A DNA stretch of 34,530 nt from Thermoleophilia bacterium (GTDB taxonomy: Bacteria; Actinomycetota; Thermoleophilia; Gaiellales; Gaiellaceae). The notes beneath the pieces are model-generated. The model searched no databases, had not been told where the DNA came from, and saw only the letters and a program-made list of their open reading frames with translations. The stretch lies in assembly GCA_025935275.1 (NCBI GenBank), contig JAICVP010000001.1:1-34530 (forward strand). The letters are read 5' to 3'. Below, piece by piece: positions 1,899-16,526 of this stretch. A program made the translations under genes and the position numbers. Numbering within the stretch: the stretch's first letter is position 1; every line of letters starts with the position of its first letter.

Positions 1899-2905
1899 GC
1901 GGCGAAGACGTCCGCGCCGCAGCCGAAGACGAGCGCGGCCTCGACCTCTTCCTCCGCCACCCCGGCCAGGGAGGGATGGCCGAGGTCGGCCTCGACCCCG
2001 GGCCACTCGTCGAGCCCGAGCGCCTTCGCTCCCTCGGCGGAGCCGATCTCCAGCAGGTCCTGCACCGAGACGACATTGCGCCGTAGCTCCTGGCGCCGCG
2101 CGATTCCCTCGAGCTCGCGCAGCTCCTCGAGCGGGTCGAGCCTGACGTTGGAGTCAGACCCGATGCAGAGTCGAATTCCGTGCTCGCGCACGCGTGCGAC
2201 GGGGAGGAAGCCGTCGCCGAGATTGGCCTCGGTGAGCGGGCAGACGCAGATGCCGGCTCCCGACTCGGCGAGGAGCGCGAGCTCGTTCTCGTCTGCGTGT
2301 GTTCCGTGGACGATCGTCGTCCGGGGGCCGAGGCAGCCGGTCTGGGCCAGGAGCTCGATCGGCCTGACGCCGTGCTCTGCGAGGCATTCCTCGATCTCCT
2401 TCGGCTGCTCGTCCGCGTGGATATGGAGGACGAGGCCTTCGCGCTCGGCGTGGGCGCCGATCTCCTGCAGCCAGTCGGCCGGGCAGGCGCGGACGGAGTG
2501 GGGGGCGACGCCTACGCGCGCACCTGACTCGCGTAGCTCCTCGACCTGCTCGAGGTAGGCGCCCACGGAGGGCTGGCGGAACCGCTCGAGGCCCCCGCGT
2601 GCGTAGGCGGAGAGGAGAAGGACGAGCTCGATACCGGCCGCTGCGGCCGCCTCGACGGCCGCCTTGGCCTCCGGCAGGCCGACATAGTGAAACTCCCCGA
2701 CGGCGGTGTAGCCAGCCGCGAGCATCTCCCTGTACGTCTCCTCGTACGAGGTGCGGACGCCGTCCGGTGTCAGGCCCTGGGCGAGCTCGAGCATCGCATC
2801 GCGCCAGGCCCAGAAGTCGTCTCCCTGGGCGCGGCCCCGCATGGCGCGCTGGAACGCGTGGCTATGGGCGGTGACGAATCCGGGCAGGGAATGCCGGTCG
2901 GACAT
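1895..2905 (-). CDS. Amidohydrolase-superfamily deaminase (formimidoylglutamate deiminase / HutF-like), short N-terminus
   Basis: GFVTAHSHAFQRAMRG (HxH metal motif), HIHADEQ, IVHGTHA and CIGSDSN are amidohydrolase metal-ligand motifs. I chose the start at MSDRH (2905) rather than the track start at 2941, which would overlap pgsA. Confidence 0.8.
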   Translation of the reverse strand: MSDRHSLPGFVTAHSHAFQRAMRGRAQGDDFWAWRDAMLELAQGLTPDGVRTSYEETYREMLAAGYTAVGEFHYVGLPEAKAAVEAAAAAGIELVLLLSAYARGGLERFRQPSVGAYLEQVEELRESGARVGVAPHSVRACPADWLQEIGAHAEREGLVLHIHADEQPKEIEECLAEHGVRPIELLAQTGCLGPRTTIVHGTHADENELALLAESGAGICVCPLTEANLGDGFLPVARVREHGIRLCIGSDSNVRLDPLEELRELEGIARRQELRRNVVSVQDLLEIGSAEGAKALGLDEWPGVEADLGHPSLAGVAEEEVEAALVFGCGADVFAA

Positions 2906-3483: not shown

Positions 3484-5996
3484 AGGCGGTCGTGATGGCG
3501 GGCGGCGAGGGCACGCGCCTGCGCCCGCTCACCTCGAACCAGCCCAAGCCGATGGTTCCCATCGTCGGCAAGCCGTGCATGGAGCACATCGTCGAGCTCC
3601 TCAAGCACCACGGCTTCGACGACATCGTCGTCACCCTCGCATTCATGCCGCAGGCGATTCGCGGCTACTTCGGCGCGGGGGAGAGCCACGGCGTTTCGAT
3701 CCGGTACTCCGTGGAGGAGTCTCCGATGGGCACCGCGGGCTCGGTGAAGCTCGCCGAGGACGCACTCGACGAGCCCTTCCTCGTCATCTCGGGTGACGCG
3801 CTCTGCGACATCGACCTCGGTGCGCTCGTGCGGTTTCACCAGGAAAAGGAAGCCATGGTGACCATCGGCCTGAAGAGCGTCGACAATCCGCTCGAGTTCG
3901 GGATCGTCGTGACCGACGATGACGGGCGCATCGAGCGGTTCCTGGAGAAGCCCTCCTGGGGCCAGGTCTTCACGGACACGATCAACACGGGCATCTACGT
4001 GCTCGACCCGGAGGTGCTCCGTCACGTGCCCGAGGGCGAGCCGTATGACTTCTCGAAGGAGCTCTTCCCGCTCCTCCTCGAGATGGGCCGCCCCCTCTAC
4101 GGCTACGTCGCGGACGGCTACTGGCAGGACATCGGGAACCTCGACCAGTTCCGCCAGGCGAACTTCGACGCTCTCGACGAGCGGGTGGCGCTGAACGTCG
4201 CCGGCATCAAGCTGCGCGGCAACGTCTGGGTCGGCGAGGGGGTCGAGCTGGCCGACCTCGAATCCGTCGAAGGCCCCGCGTTCATCGGCAACTACTGCCG
4301 CATCGCGCCGCAGGCGTCCGTCGGCCCGTACTCCGTGCTCTCGCCGAGCGTGACGCTGCGTGAGCATGCGCGCACGACGCGGTCGGTCGTGGACTCGTCC
4401 ACGTACATCGGCCGGAGCGCGCTCGTGGAGGGTGCGATCGCAGGCAAGTCCTGCGACATCAGGCCGCACGCCCGGCTGCACGAGGGGGTGGCGGTGGGGG
4501 ACAGCTGCACGATCGGCGAGCAGAGCGTCGTCATGCCTGGAATCCGCATCTATCCGTTCAAAGAGGTCGAAGCGGGCGCGCTCGTCGACCGGAACCTGAT
4601 CTGGGAGTCGCGCCTGGCCTCGAGGCTCTTCGGCCGCGACGCGGTCGCCGGCCTCGTGAACGTCGACCTGACGCCCGAGACCGCGCTGCGGGTCGGGATC
4701 GCGCTCGGCACGGCCCTGAAGCGCGGCGTCCGCGTGGTGACGAGCCGAGACGGCTCTCCCGCGAGCCGGCTCCTCAAGCGAGCGGTCGTCTCCGGCATCA
4801 CCTCCACGGGCGTCCAGGTCGCCGACCTCCACGTCATGCCGGCCGCCGTCAACCGCCACTTCCTGAAGAGCGAGGGCCTCGGCGCGGGCGTCCACGTTCG
4901 TCCGAGCACAGTCGATCCCGAGATCATGCAGATCCAATTCTTCGAGCCGCCGGGCATCCAGGCGACGCCCGAGTTCCTCAAGGAGATCGAGAAGCACTTC
5001 CAGCGCCAGGAGTTCCGGCGCGCCGCGTACGACGAGGTGGGCCAGATCTACACGCCGACACGGGCCGCCGAGACCTACGCGGACGACCTCCTGGGGACGC
5101 TCGACGTCGAGGCCATCAGGGCGCGCACCTTCAGGATCGTGGTCGACTATGCCCACTCGGCGGCCTCGATCGTGCTTCCGGTCGTGCTCGGCCCGCTCGG
5201 TGTCGAGATGATCGCCGCGCATCCGTACGGCGGGGAGCAGACCGCGGACTCGGCGGACGGGGTGCGAGAGGCGCTCGGCCATGCAAAGCGCCTCGTTGCG
5301 GCGGTCGGAGCCGACTTCGGCGTCGTGTTCGACCGCTCCGGCGAACGGATCTACCTCGTCGACGAGCAGGCGCATGAAGTCCCGGTCGAGCAGGAGCTGC
5401 TCCTTTTCCTCAGCCTCCTCGCCTCCGACGGCAAGAGCGGGACACTCGCGCTTCCGATCACGGTCACGAGCCTCGCGGAGCCGCTCGTCAAAGGCTCGAA
5501 GCTCGAGGTCACGCGAACGGCCGCCTCCCTCTCGGCGCTCACGCGCGCGTCCGCCGGTGACGGCGTCGTCTTCGCGGGGTCCATCGGCGGCGGCTTCGTC
5601 TTCCCCGAGTTCTTGCCCGCTTACGACGGCGTCGCCAGCCTCTGCAACCTGCTGCAGCTGCTCGCGCCCGTCGACCGTCCACTCTCGGAGCTTGTTTCCG
5701 GCCTGCCGCAGTCCACCGTCATCCATCGCCAGGTGCGCTGCCCGTGGGCCCGCAAGGGCGCTGTCATGCGCATCCTCACGGAACGCGTGAAGGGGAAGAA
5801 GGTGGACACCCTCGACGGGATCAAGGTCTACGAGGACGGCGGGTGGGCACAGGTGCTTCCCGACCCCGACGAGCCGCTCGTCCACGTGTACGCCGAAGGG
5901 AAGACACCGGAGGACGCGGCGACCCTCGAAGAGCGCTTCCTCAAGCTCGTCGAGGACATCGTCGCGGGCACCGATGAAGAGGACGGGGTGGCATAA
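3480..5996 (+). CDS. Sugar-1-phosphate nucleotidyltransferase (mannose-1-P guanylyltransferase-like) + hexapeptide beta-helix + phosphohexomutase-like C-terminal half
   Basis: The N-terminus [28 protein letters not shown] is the NTP-transferase G-loop. The middle part shows a left-handed beta-helix repeat pattern. The C-terminal ~460 aa is arranged like PGM/PMM, but the four catalytic motifs look degenerate (see findings). Confidence 0.85.
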
Positions 5997-12448: not shown

Positions 12449-12781
12449 ATGCCTGTTGCCACCGCACTCAAGGTCGAGGCCCTGAGCAAGGACTTCCATT
12501 CGCAGCGACAGCTCGCCGCTGCGCTCGGTGTCAGCCCGGCGCAGGTGAGCCGCTGGCGCCGCGGACAGGGGATCGACCCCGAGAACGCGGAGCGGCTCGA
12601 CCTACTCGAGCTCGTCATGTCGTCACTCCTGCGTCTCTATCAGCCCGAGACGGCGGAGAAGTGGCTTTTCGGCCTCAATCCGCTGCTGCGCCACCGGCGT
12701 CCGATCGACGTCATCCGCCAGGGAAGGCCCGAGGAGCTGCTCGCGGCCATCCGTCAGGAGCAAGCGGACTCCTACGCGTGA
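12449..12781 (+). CDS. Xre-type antitoxin (HTH + DUF2384/MbcA/ParS toxin-binding domain)
   Basis: HTH SQRQLAAALGVSPAQVSRWRRG. The C-terminal WLFGLNPLLRHRRPIDVIRQGRPEELLAAI is typical of the RES-neutralising antitoxin domain. The stop overlaps the toxin start (GTGA). Confidence 0.8.
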   Translation: MPVATALKVEALSKDFHSQRQLAAALGVSPAQVSRWRRGQGIDPENAERLDLLELVMSSLLRLYQPETAEKWLFGLNPLLRHRRPIDVIRQGRPEELLAAIRQEQADSYA

Positions 12782-13335
12782 TCCTGTTTCGCTGCCTTGC
12801 CTGGGACAAGGCGGCGTCGCCGCGCGCGCGGGGCGGCCCGCTCTGGTTCCCGCGCATGCTCCAGGGCAACGGACGGCACGACAATCCCGAGGTCTACGGC
12901 TGCCTGTACGTCTCCGTGGAGCCGGTGTCGGCCGTCGCCGAGCAGATCCAGCGCTTGGCCGGCACGTCCCTCGAGCCCGCGGACCTCGTCCGTCGCGGGC
13001 TGCCGCTCGCGCTTGCGGCCGTCGACTTCGACGAGAGCGGCGAGCTCGTCGACCTCGACGATCCCGGCGTTCTCGTGGGGGAGGGGCTGCGCCCGTCGCA
13101 GATCGCCACCAACGACCGTTCCGTGACCCAGGCGGGCGCCGCAGAGATCCATGCGCGGCATCCCGAGGCTCTCGGCCTCCGCTGGTGGTCGACGATCGAG
13201 GCCCTCTGGCCGAACGTCACGCTCTTCGACCGCGCGGAGGAGCTCCTGTCGGTGGGGGACGTCCATCCGCTCGAGCTGGGGGACGGGATCGTGGTCGAGG
13301 CGGCCGAGTATCTCGGCATTCCGATGTCGACTTGA
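12778..13335 (+). CDS. RES-domain toxin (MbcT/ParT-like NAD+-targeting enzyme)
   Basis: GNGRHDNPEVYGCLYVSVEPVSAVAE supplies the R and E of RES, and WWSTIEALWPNVTLF supplies the S. GTG start at 12778, in frame within the longer track ORF. Confidence 0.8.
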   Translation: MILFRCLAWDKAASPRARGGPLWFPRMLQGNGRHDNPEVYGCLYVSVEPVSAVAEQIQRLAGTSLEPADLVRRGLPLALAAVDFDESGELVDLDDPGVLVGEGLRPSQIATNDRSVTQAGAAEIHARHPEALGLRWWSTIEALWPNVTLFDRAEELLSVGDVHPLELGDGIVVEAAEYLGIPMST

Positions 13336-14121
13336 CATAACGCTGATTATCGTGAATCGGGCTCCTAGCCGGTACTCCTGAAACGCGAGGTCCAGCTTAG
13401 TTCCGGCTCGCTGAGACCACTGAGTAGGAGACCACACATTGCAACGTTACGACGGAAACGAGCCAGGGTCTTCGGCCCTTCGGACAGGTTCTTCGCCTCG
13501 ATCCATCGGTGGGGGCGGAGCCACCGCATCAGCCCCACCCCCGAATCGCATCAAGAGGGCGTACTCAGGGATCGGGAACCGTTATTCGGTTAGCCGGAAC
13601 CCCACCAAGGGATGGCCTGGGTTCGGATGTTCCAGAGAGCCGGGCGCGGCCGACGAGTATGCGGCTAGCACCCGCCGGCCTTCACCAGGGAGAGTGTTGG
13701 CTAAGCCCGGTTCTCCTCACTGTACGACGCGCGCCGGCCATTGTGGAGCGCGTATGCCGGCGCCCACGGACTCGCCGCCGATTTGTCCGGCGGCGTTTGA
13801 ATGTGGGAGCATCGCAGGAGGCTGGGGTCGCACACGCCGCAGGGAGCGAGGTCACCCTCTTGCGCCCTCGCTCCCGCTCTCCCGCGGCCCCAGCCTTTCT
13901 CCACAATCTTCCCGGCTTCGCGTCTGTGGGTAAATCGGCCTTTTGACGTAGTTCCCCAAGTCAACCGGGGCTTGTACACGCGCTGAGGCCAGGGATCCGT
14001 CCTTCGGCCATGGCTGGGGCCTCCGCCACACGAACGCGCCAGGGAAGTGGGCTGGTAGTCGGCATCTTTGAGATGTCGTCGGCGACCCGGAAGACCGCGT
14101 CCGCGGCCGCGTGGGCCCCGC
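13336..14121. other. ORF-poor, hairpin-dense, lower-GC spacer; candidate structured RNA(s) or decayed element
   Basis: No frame has coding-like composition; the longest + ORF has third-position GC of only ~65% by hand count, and its translation is R/P/G/S junk. Strong helices: 13731-13738/13756-13763 (8 bp); 13773-13780/13788-13795 (8 bp, followed by TTT); nested 13820-13827/13888-13895 (8 bp) around 13842-13851/13866-13875 (10 bp); 13985-13990/14018-14023 (6 bp). Confidence 0.3.
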
Positions 14122-14580
14122 CTACGGCTTGAGATCGAGCGATGCCTGACTGCTCTCCATATCGAAGGGCACCGAGGCATGTGTATGAGTGACCGTCCAG
14201 TGCTCGCCGAGCTTGCGGAAGCAGGCGGTCGCTCGCCAAAACATGTCGATCTCTTGCCCCTGCTTGGTCGTGGCGCGGACGTGATTCAGGGAGTGGCTGA
14301 ACGCAATGCCATCGCCAGCGGTGATCTTCAAGTCGTGGTTTTCGAAATCGATCGGGCCGTCGAACGACGAGAACCAATCCTCGAGGCGCCTCCGAACGGC
14401 ATCGACGCCAACGTTTTGGAGCGGATTGACGAGGTCGAACGTGAGCACATCGGGCGCATAGCCAAAGACGCTCCCGTCGATGTCCTTGGCACGAATCGAC
14501 TTGGCCCAACCGTCGATCAGTCGGCGGATTTGGGCTCCGTCCGTCTCTGTGCTTGCGGTCGTGCTCCTCGGCGCATCCAT
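14122..14580 (-). CDS. NTF2-like / SnoaL-like (DUF4440-type) small protein
   Basis: I chose the start at MDAPRS (14580), with AGGAG 5 nt upstream. IRRLIDGWAKSIRAKDIDGSVFGYAPDVLTFD...FWRATACFRKLGEHWTVTHTHASVPF is the typical NTF2-fold pattern. Confidence 0.7.
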   Translation of the reverse strand: MDAPRSTTASTETDGAQIRRLIDGWAKSIRAKDIDGSVFGYAPDVLTFDLVNPLQNVGVDAVRRRLEDWFSSFDGPIDFENHDLKITAGDGIAFSHSLNHVRATTKQGQEIDMFWRATACFRKLGEHWTVTHTHASVPFDMESSQASLDLKP

Positions 14581-15002
14581 GTCATCTCCTGTTTGTGCGG
14601 GCCGCTTGTATCCGTCCTCCCCATCCCCACTTGAGCGAATGCGAACACTCGCGCGGGCGTAGCCCGCGCCGGCCACCCTTCCGCAAAGTCAAGGCTCCCG
14701 GCTCGCTGCCGATACCTGACGATGGGTCGGGGCAAGCTCTCCTCTCTCCCGAGTCAGGACCGCCGATGAGCCGCATGTCGCTGAGGTCCGCGCCCCGGCC
14801 CCTCCCAAACTCTGAGCGTAGGGCTTCCGCCCGAGCCGCCGAGCGACGAATGAGCTCTTCGGTCTTCCTCGCGGCCAGGCGAATTGCGGCTTTAGACCCG
14901 GATTTGCCCCGGACGGGGGATGTAGTGAGGACGGGTTTCGACCTTCCTTAGAGAGGCTCGTTCATGCGAGAGCTGACGGGAACTGCGGATAGGAGAGCGG
15001 CT

Positions 15003-15734
15003 ATGAGGAAATGCTTGAGAAGGGCGTTCATCCTCTCTGTGTTCATCGTCGTCTTCGTGGCGACAGCGGCGACTGCGGCGAACGCGGGTGATTCAACCGG
15101 GGAAGTTGCCCAGCTCGAGGACGTCTCGAAGCAGGTGTCCTCCATCGAGAACAAGATTGACGAGCTGCTCGGGCACGGGGGGTGGGCAAGGCCAGGACGG
15201 CTGCTCGAAAGTGCGGATTGCGGTTACGGCGATCCGTCTTCCCAGTTCGCAGCATGGGGAGATGCCGCTGCCTACGTGCTGGCGCCCCAGGGCGACCTGT
15301 CGGCCACCGACGGCTGGACACTGAACAAGCAGGCGACCGTCGTTTACTCGGCGGACCCGTTCAGCGGCGCCGAGCATTCACTCCTACTCTCAAAGGGAGC
15401 GGAGGCGGGAACGCCGGCGATGTGTGTGACGCTCGACAACCCTACGATCCGCTTTTTCATCAGGGATCGCGGCGGCAACGAGAAGTCTCATCTGAAGGTC
15501 GACGTTCTCTACGAGGACTTCGGCGGCCACATCAAGCGTCTAACGATCGCGAGGCTACAGGCCGGAAGCGAATGGGAGCCGTCTTTGATCCTCCCGATCT
15601 ACATGAACGTCCTCGCGCTCGCGTCGCCGAGCGGCGTGACTGCCGTCGCATTTCGGTTCAAGGCCGAAGGGCTGCAGAAGGACGAAACGCTGTCGATCTC
15701 GAGTCTCTACATCGATCCCCTCAAGATGAGCTAA
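15003..15734 (+). CDS. Secreted hypothetical protein
   Basis: I chose ATG 15003, with GGAGAG about 7 nt upstream. Signal peptide MRKCLRRAFILSVFIVVFVATAATAANA. The rest is beta-rich. No family recognised. Confidence 0.65.
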   Translation: MRKCLRRAFILSVFIVVFVATAATAANAGDSTGEVAQLEDVSKQVSSIENKIDELLGHGGWARPGRLLESADCGYGDPSSQFAAWGDAAAYVLAPQGDLSATDGWTLNKQATVVYSADPFSGAEHSLLLSKGAEAGTPAMCVTLDNPTIRFFIRDRGGNEKSHLKVDVLYEDFGGHIKRLTIARLQAGSEWEPSLILPIYMNVLALASPSGVTAVAFRFKAEGLQKDETLSISSLYIDPLKMS

Positions 15735-15744
15735 ATCAGCGGCG

Positions 15745-16011
15745 GTGCCGCGGCGTGTCCACGACCGCGAAACGTCATCAACGGATGACGCGTCGTCCAC
15801 CCTCCCGCTCATCTGCGAGTGCGGCTCGGCGGATTGCAAGGACACGATTGAGGAAGTACCCAGCCTGGCATCCTGCGGCCTAGCCCGACTTTTCATTGCA
15901 CTGCCGGCATCGCATGCGACGGGAGTCCTCTTCCTTCGCTTTTTCTCAGCCCGTGAACGCCGGTTATCGCCGGCTTGCCACCGCTCCGCGGGAAGGCTAG
16001 GTGCTGCCTAG
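15745..16011 (+). CDS. Possible degenerate paralogue of the CECGxxxC small protein (may be a pseudogene)
   Basis: PLICECGSADCKDTIE resembles 1641-1898. By hand count, third-position GC is high up to about 15845 and then falls to ~55%, which suggests a decayed or replaced 3' part. Confidence 0.3.
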   Translation: MPRRVHDRETSSTDDASSTLPLICECGSADCKDTIEEVPSLASCGLARLFIALPASHATGVLFLRFFSARERRLSPACHRSAGRLGAA

Positions 16012-16109
16012 CCGGAAGGCGGTTTTACATTTTCCAAACGTGGTATATCCCACGGCCAAGGGTCTTCCATTGGGAGAGGATCCGGGACGTACAAAGGGAG
16101 AGGGGAAGC

Positions 16110-16337
16110 ATGAACCGCCTCATCGCAGTTCTCGCCGTTCTCATGGTCAGCTTCGTGCTGGTCATTCCGGCCTTTGCGGCAAACCCGTCGGGTCAGACTC
16201 CGAAGCAGGGAAAGGCCACCTGCCTCGCCAACGGCGGGACCTGGTTCTCGAAGTCACAGACGTGTCTCACCACGAGTGGCGAGTGTGTCGCGCTCACCGG
16301 TGAGCTCGTCTCGCCGGAGCGGTTCTGCCGTATCTAG
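16110..16337 (+). CDS. Small secreted Cys-rich peptide (75-aa precursor, ~50-aa mature with 4 Cys)
   Basis: GGAGAGGGGAAG precedes ATG 16110. Signal peptide MNRLIAVLAVLMVSFVLVIPAFA/ANP. The mature part is TCLANGGTWFSKSQTCLTTSGECVALTGELVSPERFC. Third-position GC is high. Confidence 0.6.
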   Translation: MNRLIAVLAVLMVSFVLVIPAFAANPSGQTPKQGKATCLANGGTWFSKSQTCLTTSGECVALTGELVSPERFCRI

Positions 16338-16526
16338 CGTGATCCGCGAACTGCCCTAGAGCAGTCGCGACATAGGAACGAAGGAGCCGGGGCTGTAAGG
16401 AGGAGTTCGGTCACGCCCTAGTGCCGTTGAGCCTGCCCCGGCTCCGTCGTCTCGTCCCTCTCAGTATCGGCCTTTCCCGCGCGCTGTCGCGTTGATCTTC
16501 ATAAACGCTAAGCGGAAGGGCCCGGA

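Follow-up and report, generated by a model that had tools for sequence, protein, structure and literature searches.

What does a soil bacterium keep in 786 bp of DNA that are dense in helices and encode no recognizable protein? This question is raised by positions 13336-14121 of contig C183 of a Gaiellaceae genome (G000), which forms the window of 34,530 nt that was analyzed here as a whole. A sequence-only reading had proposed either one large structured RNA or the decayed remnant of a mobile element. The analysis described in the following indicates that the stretch is very probably a non-coding mosaic in an islet inserted at dif, the predicted chromosomal Xer recombination site, and that it contains an 84-nt three-way junction (TWJ) with a fold that appears to be under selection. 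The Gaiellaceae count among the most abundant uncultured Actinomycetota of soils; to our knowledge, almost nothing is known about their non-coding and mobile DNA. Genomes and contigs are given by G and C numbers, and the coordinates of the features are collected in Table 1.

The DNA of the stretch was compared with the own genome and 60 relatives. Its G + C content drops to 0.59-0.69, compared to 0.70-0.73 in the flanks. In every stop-to-stop open reading frame (ORF), the G + C content is flat across the codon positions (0.6-0.7 at all three), and no ORF passes a codon-usage score trained on the long ORFs of G000, which is passed by the flanking RES, Xre and SnoaL genes. Pfam gave nothing credible for 15 ORF translations from any frame, a database-wide translated search not being made. 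Because, furthermore, homologous copies of its parts are separated by indels of 1-2 nt, the stretch is regarded as non-coding, in line with the sequence-only reading, which had seen no credible ORF. Gene fragments, named by that reading as a sign that it would be wrong, could not be recognized in any frame (Pfam on ORF translations only).

A search with Rfam, in which the tested families include RNase P, tmRNA, signal recognition particle RNA, 6S, riboswitches, OLE, GOLLD, ROOL and HEARO, revealed no match in the whole window at the gathering threshold and only noise (E > 1) in 13200-14300. At E up to 0.5, nothing was found in three further loci that carry the modules described below, and ARAGORN found neither a tRNA nor a tmRNA, so that the stretch indeed holds no match to these catalogued RNAs. 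The sequence GGGGAUGUAG..GGUUUCGAC at 14917-14945 was considered as a tmRNA and rejected, being a mere resemblance to a tmRNA 5′ end with a negative ARAGORN result.

Four of the five helices listed before could be verified: 13731-13738/13756-13763, 13773-13780/13788-13795 (followed by TTTGA) and 13985-13990/14018-14023 are exact complements, as are 13820-13827/13888-13895 and 13842-13851/13866-13875 in the nested hairpin, and the 8-nt direct repeat GAGACCAC occurs at 13413-13420 and 13428-13435. The helix at 13773-13780/13788-13795 had been called terminator-like; it has no U-tract and lies outside the conserved block. A consensus scan of 13200-15100 detected no canonical intrinsic terminator and no canonical sigma-70 promoter. 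Single-sequence fold z-scores are modest for 13505-13725 (-1.1 and -2.5 on the two strands) and amount to -2.9 and -2.6 for 13789-13960. The weight of the evidence is the conservation and covariation of two sub-regions, not the raw helix count.

Different parts of the stretch have different relatives. For 13354-13771 this is one locus in G006, for 13509-13715 there are loci in G012 and, twice, in G010, and for 13789-13955 the relatives are found on C266 of the own genome and in G002. By this comparison, the 786 bp were shown to be assembled as a mosaic from portable, non-coding modules, of which at least two, named A and B, can be told apart. The long form of module A shares 74% identity over 429 nt with a locus at about 46.1 kb of G006:C1, which is located downstream of V-type ATPase genes and not at dif. 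The core of module A was recovered with model R1 at 104-222 bits in 11 full-length copies, namely those of G006, G010 (two), G012, the window and six soil contigs. Its 5′ hairpin is nearly invariant (GGGGC GG AGCCA CC .. GCCCC), single-stranded motifs are shared as well, and indels within the core are not multiples of three. Sequence conservation of the 5′ part is high, its covariation is limited, and folding energies do not separate the strands. A contig pattern scan for module A returned the four genus copies already found and chance matches only. Module B is represented by three copies including that of the window, the others being C266:4814-4921 of the own genome (78% identity) and a copy on G002:C43 (77% identity). 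A single pair of the inner stem shows compensation (C-G to U-A); the evidence is thin, and module B can only tentatively be called a structured module.

The TWJ forms the 3′ part of the module A core. It was first seen as shorter loci matched by the last 80 positions of R1, and four copies in the own genome show its three arms. The closing stem P1 comprises 11 bp (GAGAGCCGGGC / GCCCGGYUCUC) and is conserved in sequence. P2 is a hairpin with a stem that is wholly different between copies (GGCCG.., GUUGCGG.., GUCGAG..) and an invariant UGCGGC in its loop; the joiner J2/3 reads (G/C)UUC, and P3 is a covarying hairpin with a loop of the GGGAGA type. A dedicated model (R2) identified 25 TWJ copies in 8 of the 13 genomes of the genus, with one to eight copies per genome, and a few loci in related genera. 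In one of these (g11), P1 itself covaries (GAGCCGAGGC / GCCUCGGCUC), and in another (g8) a single-copy 65-nt form without P3 is found at the same locus in three genomes (e.g., G019:C1:518343-518408). The g8 form lies between an amidohydrolase gene and a gene for an HxlR-type regulator, 32 nt after the amidohydrolase stop codon in the better-folding orientation. Among 150 genomes from the rest of the class, R2 found no member of the family. An exact-pattern scan of metagenomes yielded at least 120 contigs, almost all from soil, many short matches being chance hits in coding DNA; among the 80 metagenome loci listed, 37 sites match R2 at E < 1e-5.

Both the genus alignment and the metagenome alignment were used for pair counts, with similar results: 83-84% of the cells are paired and 15-17 of 26 pairs are changed on both sides. 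The covariation score amounts to 0.24-0.26 compared to 0.13 in shuffled alignments, none of 500 shuffles reaches the observed value, and sliding the register drops the pairing to 27-51%. The extra copies and the covariation that the sequence-only reading had suggested looking for are thus both present, the former in the own genome as well as in relatives. The TWJ copies are 70-90% identical and almost all still foldable. From these alignments, the TWJ is with high confidence a selected structure, its fold being preserved through compensatory changes across a multi-copy family that is restricted to a few Gaiellaceae genera. As a rule, the homology between dispersed copies begins 1-2 nt ahead of P1 and stops after another 80-95 nt, and therefore the TWJ itself is the unit of dispersal; its flanks are a mosaic of other modules of 100-400 nt that are common to different subsets of genomes. 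A hammerhead core was compared by eye and rejected, since the joining strands do not fit. No description of the TWJ element was found in the literature.

The left end of the stretch is defined by dif. The sequence-only reading had placed a perfect TTGACA at 13332-13337 over the stop codon of the RES gene (TGA, 13333-13335), and its position was read correctly. It is, however, not a promoter box, since it belongs to the XerD-binding arm of the predicted dif. On the plus strand the 28-bp site reads ACTTGACATAA / CGCTGA / TTATCGTGAAT, including TTGACA, and on the minus strand ATTCACGATAA / TCAGCG / TTATGTCAAGT. The dif proposed for Frankia alni served as the reference for the arms: the XerD arm is identical to it at 11 of 11 positions and the inner part of the XerC arm at six of six (PMC3025954). 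The site is unique in the G000 assembly. Among 41 relatives of the order, 26 match the dif pattern, 25 of them in a single copy and G002 in two, and a reversed control pattern has zero matches in the same 41. The position relative to the terminus was assessed in G006, a near-complete congener (the G000 contig spans only 34 kb). There, dif is located at 251.94 kb of C1, where the coding-strand bias flips: genes left of 252 kb lie mostly on the plus strand and genes right of it mostly on the minus strand. The maximum of the cumulative GC skew is found at 272-292 kb, 20-40 kb from dif. Tandem tyrosine-recombinase genes occur in all genomes of the genus (e.g., G000:C186:3020-4661), with only partial matches to TIGR02249, and are read as XerC and XerD. 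Owing to the identity of the XerD arm, the uniqueness, the single copy in relatives, the coding-strand switch and the Xer-like gene pair, 13330-13357 was shown to have the properties of a chromosomal dif, as far as can be judged by comparison. The two copies in G002 (C95:6208-6230 and C101:28174-28196, with the centers CGCCGA and CGCCGG) are each located at a contig end, which suggests an unassembled element between two dif sites.

The RES gene on the left of dif has syntenic counterparts with 76-88% identity in six congeners (G006, G005, G008, G009, G001, and G002, here only at a contig end). On the right, an empty site is found in G006, G009 and G001, in which the equivalent of approximately 13354-13359 is joined to that of 16377 within 6-24 nt. 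Other DNA of 0.2-6 kb occupies the same place in G005, G008, G002 and G010. The junction of RES gene, dif and islet is spanned by an independent soil DNA contig (12831-13509) and therefore is not an assembly artefact of this genome; the empty dif junction was also found in one contig from an RNA library. Congener comparison thereby showed 13360-16376 to be a presence/absence insertion placed exactly at the predicted dif. By the same comparison, the stretch is the dif-proximal end of an accessory cassette of roughly 2.6-3.0 kb at this putative Xer recombination site. The lower-GC accessory islet of the sequence-only reading is supported by both the drop in G + C content and the strain-specific insertion. 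Its decayed mobile remnant stands in part: the insertion at dif is strain-specific, and decay does not apply to the best module, which appears to be kept by selection on structure.

Concerning the far end of such inserts, that of G008 (0.5 kb) ends in a second dif-like site matching at 17 of 28 positions, with the center and the XerC arm kept and a poor XerD arm, and the first 4.7 kb of the G002 insert end likewise in a second site (19/28). A second site with a poor XerD arm is an arrangement known from IMEX elements (integrative mobile elements exploiting Xer recombination) and the gonococcal genetic island. A degenerate dif-like site is also present inside the insert of the window. Its 14 nt AACGCCGGTTATCG (15956-15969) match the dif of G005, G006, G008 and G010 exactly, and homology to a cassette of G005 composed of dif and a peptide gene begins at 15956. 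A scan of the islet for further copies of the whole 28-mer revealed nothing above chance. The insert looks like two tandem cassettes, 13360 to about 15946 and 15975-16376, and we infer an Xer-mediated entry. The motif CATAAACGCT at 16494-16508 was rejected as islet boundary, as synteny places the boundary at 16376/16377. An inovirus remnant was rejected as well: the genes on the dif side in G002 and the window encode a MerR-cyclase, a PAP2-like protein, SnoaL and an unknown secreted protein, and neither Zot nor Rep is among them. Collections of phages, plasmids and IMG/VR gave no match.

For the TWJ, the folding strand was deduced from the mismatches. On the strand of the model, i.e., the plus strand of the window, 50 A.C mismatches compared to 21 G.U pairs were counted, concentrated in P2. 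A.C mismatches become wobble pairs on the reverse complement, and therefore the opposite strand is favored. Of 55 distinct copies, 44 fold more stably as the reverse complement (mean 4.2 kcal/mol); the orientation of the latter is shared by 50 neighboring genes vs. 30, and about ten copies are located 5-150 nt behind a co-oriented stop codon in this orientation. The folding strand is thus likely the minus strand of the window. Here, 405 nt separate the TWJ from the stop codon of the upstream SnoaL gene, which is co-oriented with the better-folding strand. In none of the 55 copies does the TWJ overlap a predicted gene. An intrinsic terminator was considered for the TWJ and rejected, with no U-tract beside P1 and none called in 13200-15100. 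Contigs from one soil RNA library cover 13007-13468, 13618-13704 and 14749-14922, and those over 13618-13704 continue into the module-A-type junction sequence of relatives, which gives a hint of TWJ transcription.

Taken together, an accessory insert at dif with a strand-specific folded module is the best explanation of the locus as a whole, and is held with medium confidence. For the cassette, we propose entry through site-specific recombination of the Xer type, as for IMEX elements or dif modules; one end would thereby keep an intact dif, and the other a degraded dif-like site. The TWJ would act as a folded single strand, most likely as a minus-strand RNA in the 3′ untranslated region of the SnoaL gene, with the GC-rich closing stem and the conserved loops (GCCGCA and UCUCCC on the minus strand) forming a protein-recognized, exonuclease-blocking 3′-end or stability element. 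A 3′-end and mRNA stability role is known for the repetitive extragenic palindromic (REP) elements of enterobacteria. The TWJ would spread as the accessory cassettes that carry it recombine and move. For its function, we favor a strand-specific folded RNA (or single-stranded DNA) module that may travel with accessory cassettes and resemble REP-type 3′ ends. That the TWJ works as an RNA is an evenly balanced proposition, and work as single-stranded DNA or as a mobile-repeat substrate is possible, somewhat on the doubtful side.

Several findings count against this explanation. Within the genus, P1 is conserved in sequence without covariation, which fits a DNA recognition site too. In the 5′ part of module A, the plus strand has 28 G.U compared to 11 A.C, so the two halves of the module point to different strands, and the TWJ of the window itself folds slightly better on the plus strand (-43.6 vs. 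-42.0 on the minus strand). Distances to co-oriented upstream genes are mostly several hundred nt, and no U-tract follows P1, the 14 nt past it containing 23-28% T in either orientation in 48 copies. The RNA-library contigs come without strand or ends, and DNA carry-over is possible. Concerning the insertion, the internal site 15947-15974 scores 14/28 as a whole 28-mer, which is within the range of chance, and the source is a fragmented metagenome-assembled genome (MAG; 2.25 Mb in 383 contigs, 87% complete, 3.6% contamination).

The strongest competitor arises from the surroundings of the TWJ copies, which are clustered and located in variable islets near integrases and tRNA genes. An integrase-bearing element in G006 is bounded by a 45-nt repeat of the tRNA-Trp 3′ half, and one TWJ is found about 0.6 kb away from this repeat. 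In G012 and one soil contig, module A is found inside a 1.8-kb segment without a credible ORF, between two tRNA-Trp 3′-half repeats (45 nt); the G012 segment looks like an integrase-less, cis-mobilizable remnant. One copy in G005 adjoins tRNA-Ser and an integrase remnant. These contexts, the multi-copy clustered family and the usual limits of homology 1-2 nt before P1 and 80-95 nt on would also fit selfish miniature mobile DNA of the REPIN, MITE (miniature inverted-repeat transposable element) or CIME type, with the ends of P1, a sequence-conserved inverted repeat, and the loops being recognized by a transposase or recombinase on single-stranded DNA or a cruciform. No RNA function would be needed, and modules A and B might belong here as well. 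The conserved ends and the unit-wise dispersal are explained equally well, and G.T wobble pairs in single-stranded DNA give the same strand asymmetry. Against this stand the low copy number of one to eight per genome, the age of the copies (70-90% identity) with nearly all still foldable, and the single-copy g8 form without P3 at one locus in three genomes. Genes of the Y1/RAYT type (PF01797) were found only in G002, G003, G009 and G011, three of which have no TWJ; PF01797 was not found in G000, G004, G005, G006, G008, G010 and G012, which hold 24 of the 25 TWJ copies and are seven of the eight carrier genomes (60-96% complete). Flanks of the TWJ show no consistent target-site duplication, and no full-length parent insertion sequence (IS) was seen, though no search was aimed at one. 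Selfish DNA is rather unlikely, and with it the idea that the structure persists since only foldable copies propagate. Two specific candidates were rejected, a RAYT-linked REP or REPIN, as RAYT is anticorrelated with the TWJ among the 13 genus genomes, and an integron attC, as P1 lacks the R''/R' core sites (RYYYAAC / GTTRRRY) and IntI was not found above the cut-off; the integron integrase model TIGR02249 gave nothing above the cut-off in the 13 genomes.

The remaining explanations are less probable. Neutral debris of an old insertion, i.e., decayed genes or spacer with helices as a by-product of high G + C content, would agree with the modest single-sequence z-scores and with the little or no conservation of 13360-13506 and 13956-14121, the latter having only short, GC-rich, low-complexity matches to many loci and no Pfam match in any frame. 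It is improbable overall; for 13507-13720 and 13789-13955 it can be regarded as largely refuted, and elsewhere in the stretch it is possible. In two independent sets, the covariation exceeds the shuffle and slide controls by far, the loops are invariant, the TWJ pattern occurs in at least 120 metagenome contigs, and there is no pseudogene signal. Neutral decay of MITEs would not yield compensatory stem changes with conserved loops. The one structured RNA of about 0.8 kb across 13336-14121 that the sequence-only reading had put forward could draw on the many helices and on the 414-nt block 13358-13771, which is kept whole in G006. It is very unlikely, because the sub-regions 13358-13771, 13507-13720 and 13789-13955 have different copy sets and neighbors; moreover, the last 166 bp are without a conserved relative, the whole block is absent from three congeners, Rfam gives no match above noise even at E = 10, no promoter or terminator was called, and the TTGACA belongs to dif. 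Equally hard to credit is a cis-regulatory role of the TWJ as a riboswitch or leader of a downstream gene. A compact three-way junction with conserved loops and joiners would suit it, and one to eight copies per genome are seen for some riboswitch classes, yet there is no consistent downstream gene or distance in either orientation, and both the sequence conservation of P1 and the mosaic flanks argue against it. The neighbors share no common function (RES, SnoaL, cupin, HxlR, amidohydrolase, DUF2203 and unknowns) and are mostly 200-1000 nt away in either orientation.

Table 1. Features of the window around the stretch 13336-14121
Feature	Position	Strand	Basis and remarks
Xre antitoxin gene	12449-12781		Pfam HTH_3; pairs with the RES toxin gene
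RES-domain toxin gene	12778-13335	+	Pfam RES, codon score; core genome, left neighbor of dif
Predicted chromosomal dif	13330-13357	- (usual XerC-center-XerD orientation)	28 bp, 11 + 6 + 11 layout
Module A, long form (~414 nt)	13358-13771		Non-coding; left end is the islet/dif junction
Strain-specific 3.0-kb insert	13360-16376		Next to dif; includes the whole stretch 13336-14121 beyond dif
Module A, core (~215 nt)	13507-13720		5′ hairpin, further helices and the TWJ as 3′ part
TWJ (84 nt)	13634-13717	Family folds better on -	Models R1/R2
Two 8-bp GC helices	13731-13795	+	Read in the sequence; second not called a terminator; homology to G006 stops at 13771
Module B (candidate)	13789-13955		Conserved GAUGUGGGAGCAUCG motif, then long nested hairpin GGCUGGGGUCGC .. 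GCGGCCCCAGCC, inner GGGAGCGAGG/CCUCGCUCCC
Unconserved tail	13956-14121		Includes helix 13985-13990/14018-14023; abuts the SnoaL stop codon
SnoaL_3-domain gene	14122-14580	-	Pfam SnoaL_3 (E = 1e-15), codon score; cargo of the insert
Weak, divergent TWJ-like copy	14721-14803	-	R2 score of 26 bits (E ~ 1e-3); lies 5′ of the SnoaL gene
Fragment of a second repeat family	14812-14849	+	Core CCGCCCGAGCAGCCGAGCGACGACGG, family ~100 nt; eight more copies in the own genome
Degenerate dif-like site	15947-15974		CAGCCCGTGAA / CGCCGG / TTATCGCCGGC; inside the insert, start of the second cassette with the 4-Cys peptide gene
Core-genome hairpin	16378-16450	+	GGAGCCGGGGC .. GCCCCGGCUCC; inverted repeat, 94% complementary

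Further cargo of the insert comprises a gene at 15039-15734, the 231-aa product of which bears a hydrophobic leader at its N-terminus and has no Pfam match, and a gene at 16110-16337 for a 75-aa secreted four-cysteine peptide. The peptide cassette is common to G005, G010 and G002 and missing from G006, G009 and G001. At the empty sites of the latter three genomes, the core-genome hairpin is kept directly to the right of the point of insertion. It has a stem similar to P1 of the TWJ and is located between dif and a histidine kinase gene in all congeners checked. Within the insert, the block 14676-14806 is 89% identical to a sequence on G010:C8. In a soil DNA run, the contig depth over 14749-14922 amounts to about six times the flanking value, and in the RNA library no other part is covered as deeply; this region is therefore a community-wide repeat. 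The second repeat family often starts right after a TAG and forms same-orientation arrays with a spacing of 0.5-1 kb and small genes of low codon score in between (G005:C6:222000-238000, G004:C8, G005:C20). One of the G005 arrays lies between prs and an L25/Ctc gene, in a layout like that of a cassette array, with no integron integrase. Beside the module A copy of G006 (G006:C1:38000-52000, local positions 4265-5434), a gene for a baeRF-family release-factor-like protein and small unknown ORFs are found, with V-type ATPase A/B genes upstream. The sole plausible ORF in the 1.8-kb segment of G012 (G012:C62:79430-82636, positions 567-2466) encodes a 53-aa hydrophobic peptide (2095-2256, minus strand).

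For the order, these results provide a well-supported dif, which can be used to fix the replication terminus in fragmented MAGs, and point to dif as a hotspot for small accessory cassettes. Furthermore, a covariation-backed and searchable model is now available for a structured element that is not catalogued so far and occurs widely in soil metagenomes. A more far-reaching idea is that the TWJ with the 5′ extension of module A might belong to a functional class of folded nucleic acid that is new and confined to the accessory DNA of Gaiellaceae, either as a small RNA or 3′ untranslated region domain with a protein partner or as a single-stranded DNA signal for the capture or maintenance of cassettes at dif and tRNA hotspots. 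This is speculative and rather unlikely; if true, the lineage would possess a cassette system with a logic like that of integrons or pdif modules and different parts.

Compared to known systems, the islet is closest to accessory DNA beside a chromosomal dif, such as IMEX elements, dif islands (CTX-phi, TLC-phi, gonococcal genetic island) and the pdif modules of Acinetobacter plasmids (PMC9226527, PMC5790767 and PMC10132070). As in these systems, the accessory DNA adjoins an intact dif and has a second site with a poor XerD arm at its far end (in G008 and G002; degraded in the window), and the islet has no recombinase of its own, carries small miscellaneous cargo and adjoins a toxin-antitoxin pair. 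In contrast to them, phage or replication genes are absent and XerCD integration is a deduction from the sites; the second site of the window is not significant as a 28-mer. The islet resides in an actinobacterial soil host, a lineage for which no report of such elements or of a dif cassette hotspot was found.

The TWJ shares with REP, BIME and REPIN elements (PMC3116915) that it is short, GC-rich, extragenic, multi-copy and clustered, with a maintained hairpin and often behind genes; REPs in this position stabilize the upstream mRNA (PMC3116915). It differs from them in being an 84-nt three-way junction with one to eight copies rather than a 20-40-nt hairpin or doublet with hundreds, in the anticorrelation with RAYT in the genus and in lacking a 5′ tetranucleotide of the GTAG type. 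Inverted ends, dispersal as a unit and foldability in transcripts are found in MITEs and in Correia, ERIC and RPE elements as well (PMC3184786); unlike in MITEs, no target-site duplication or parent IS was seen, and compensatory changes are repeated while loops are conserved. With respect to attC sites, P1 lacks RYYYAAC / GTTRRRY and no integrase was detected above the cut-off in the 13 genus genomes, whereas imperfect palindromes folding on one strand beside small cassette-like genes and toxin-antitoxin loci, and same-orientation arrays of 0.5-1 kb in the genus, are reminiscent of attC/CALIN arrays. In summary, dif-side islands and structured extragenic repeats are already known kinds of elements, while the order-wide assignment of dif, the dif cassette hotspot in soil actinobacteria and the covarying TWJ family are new.

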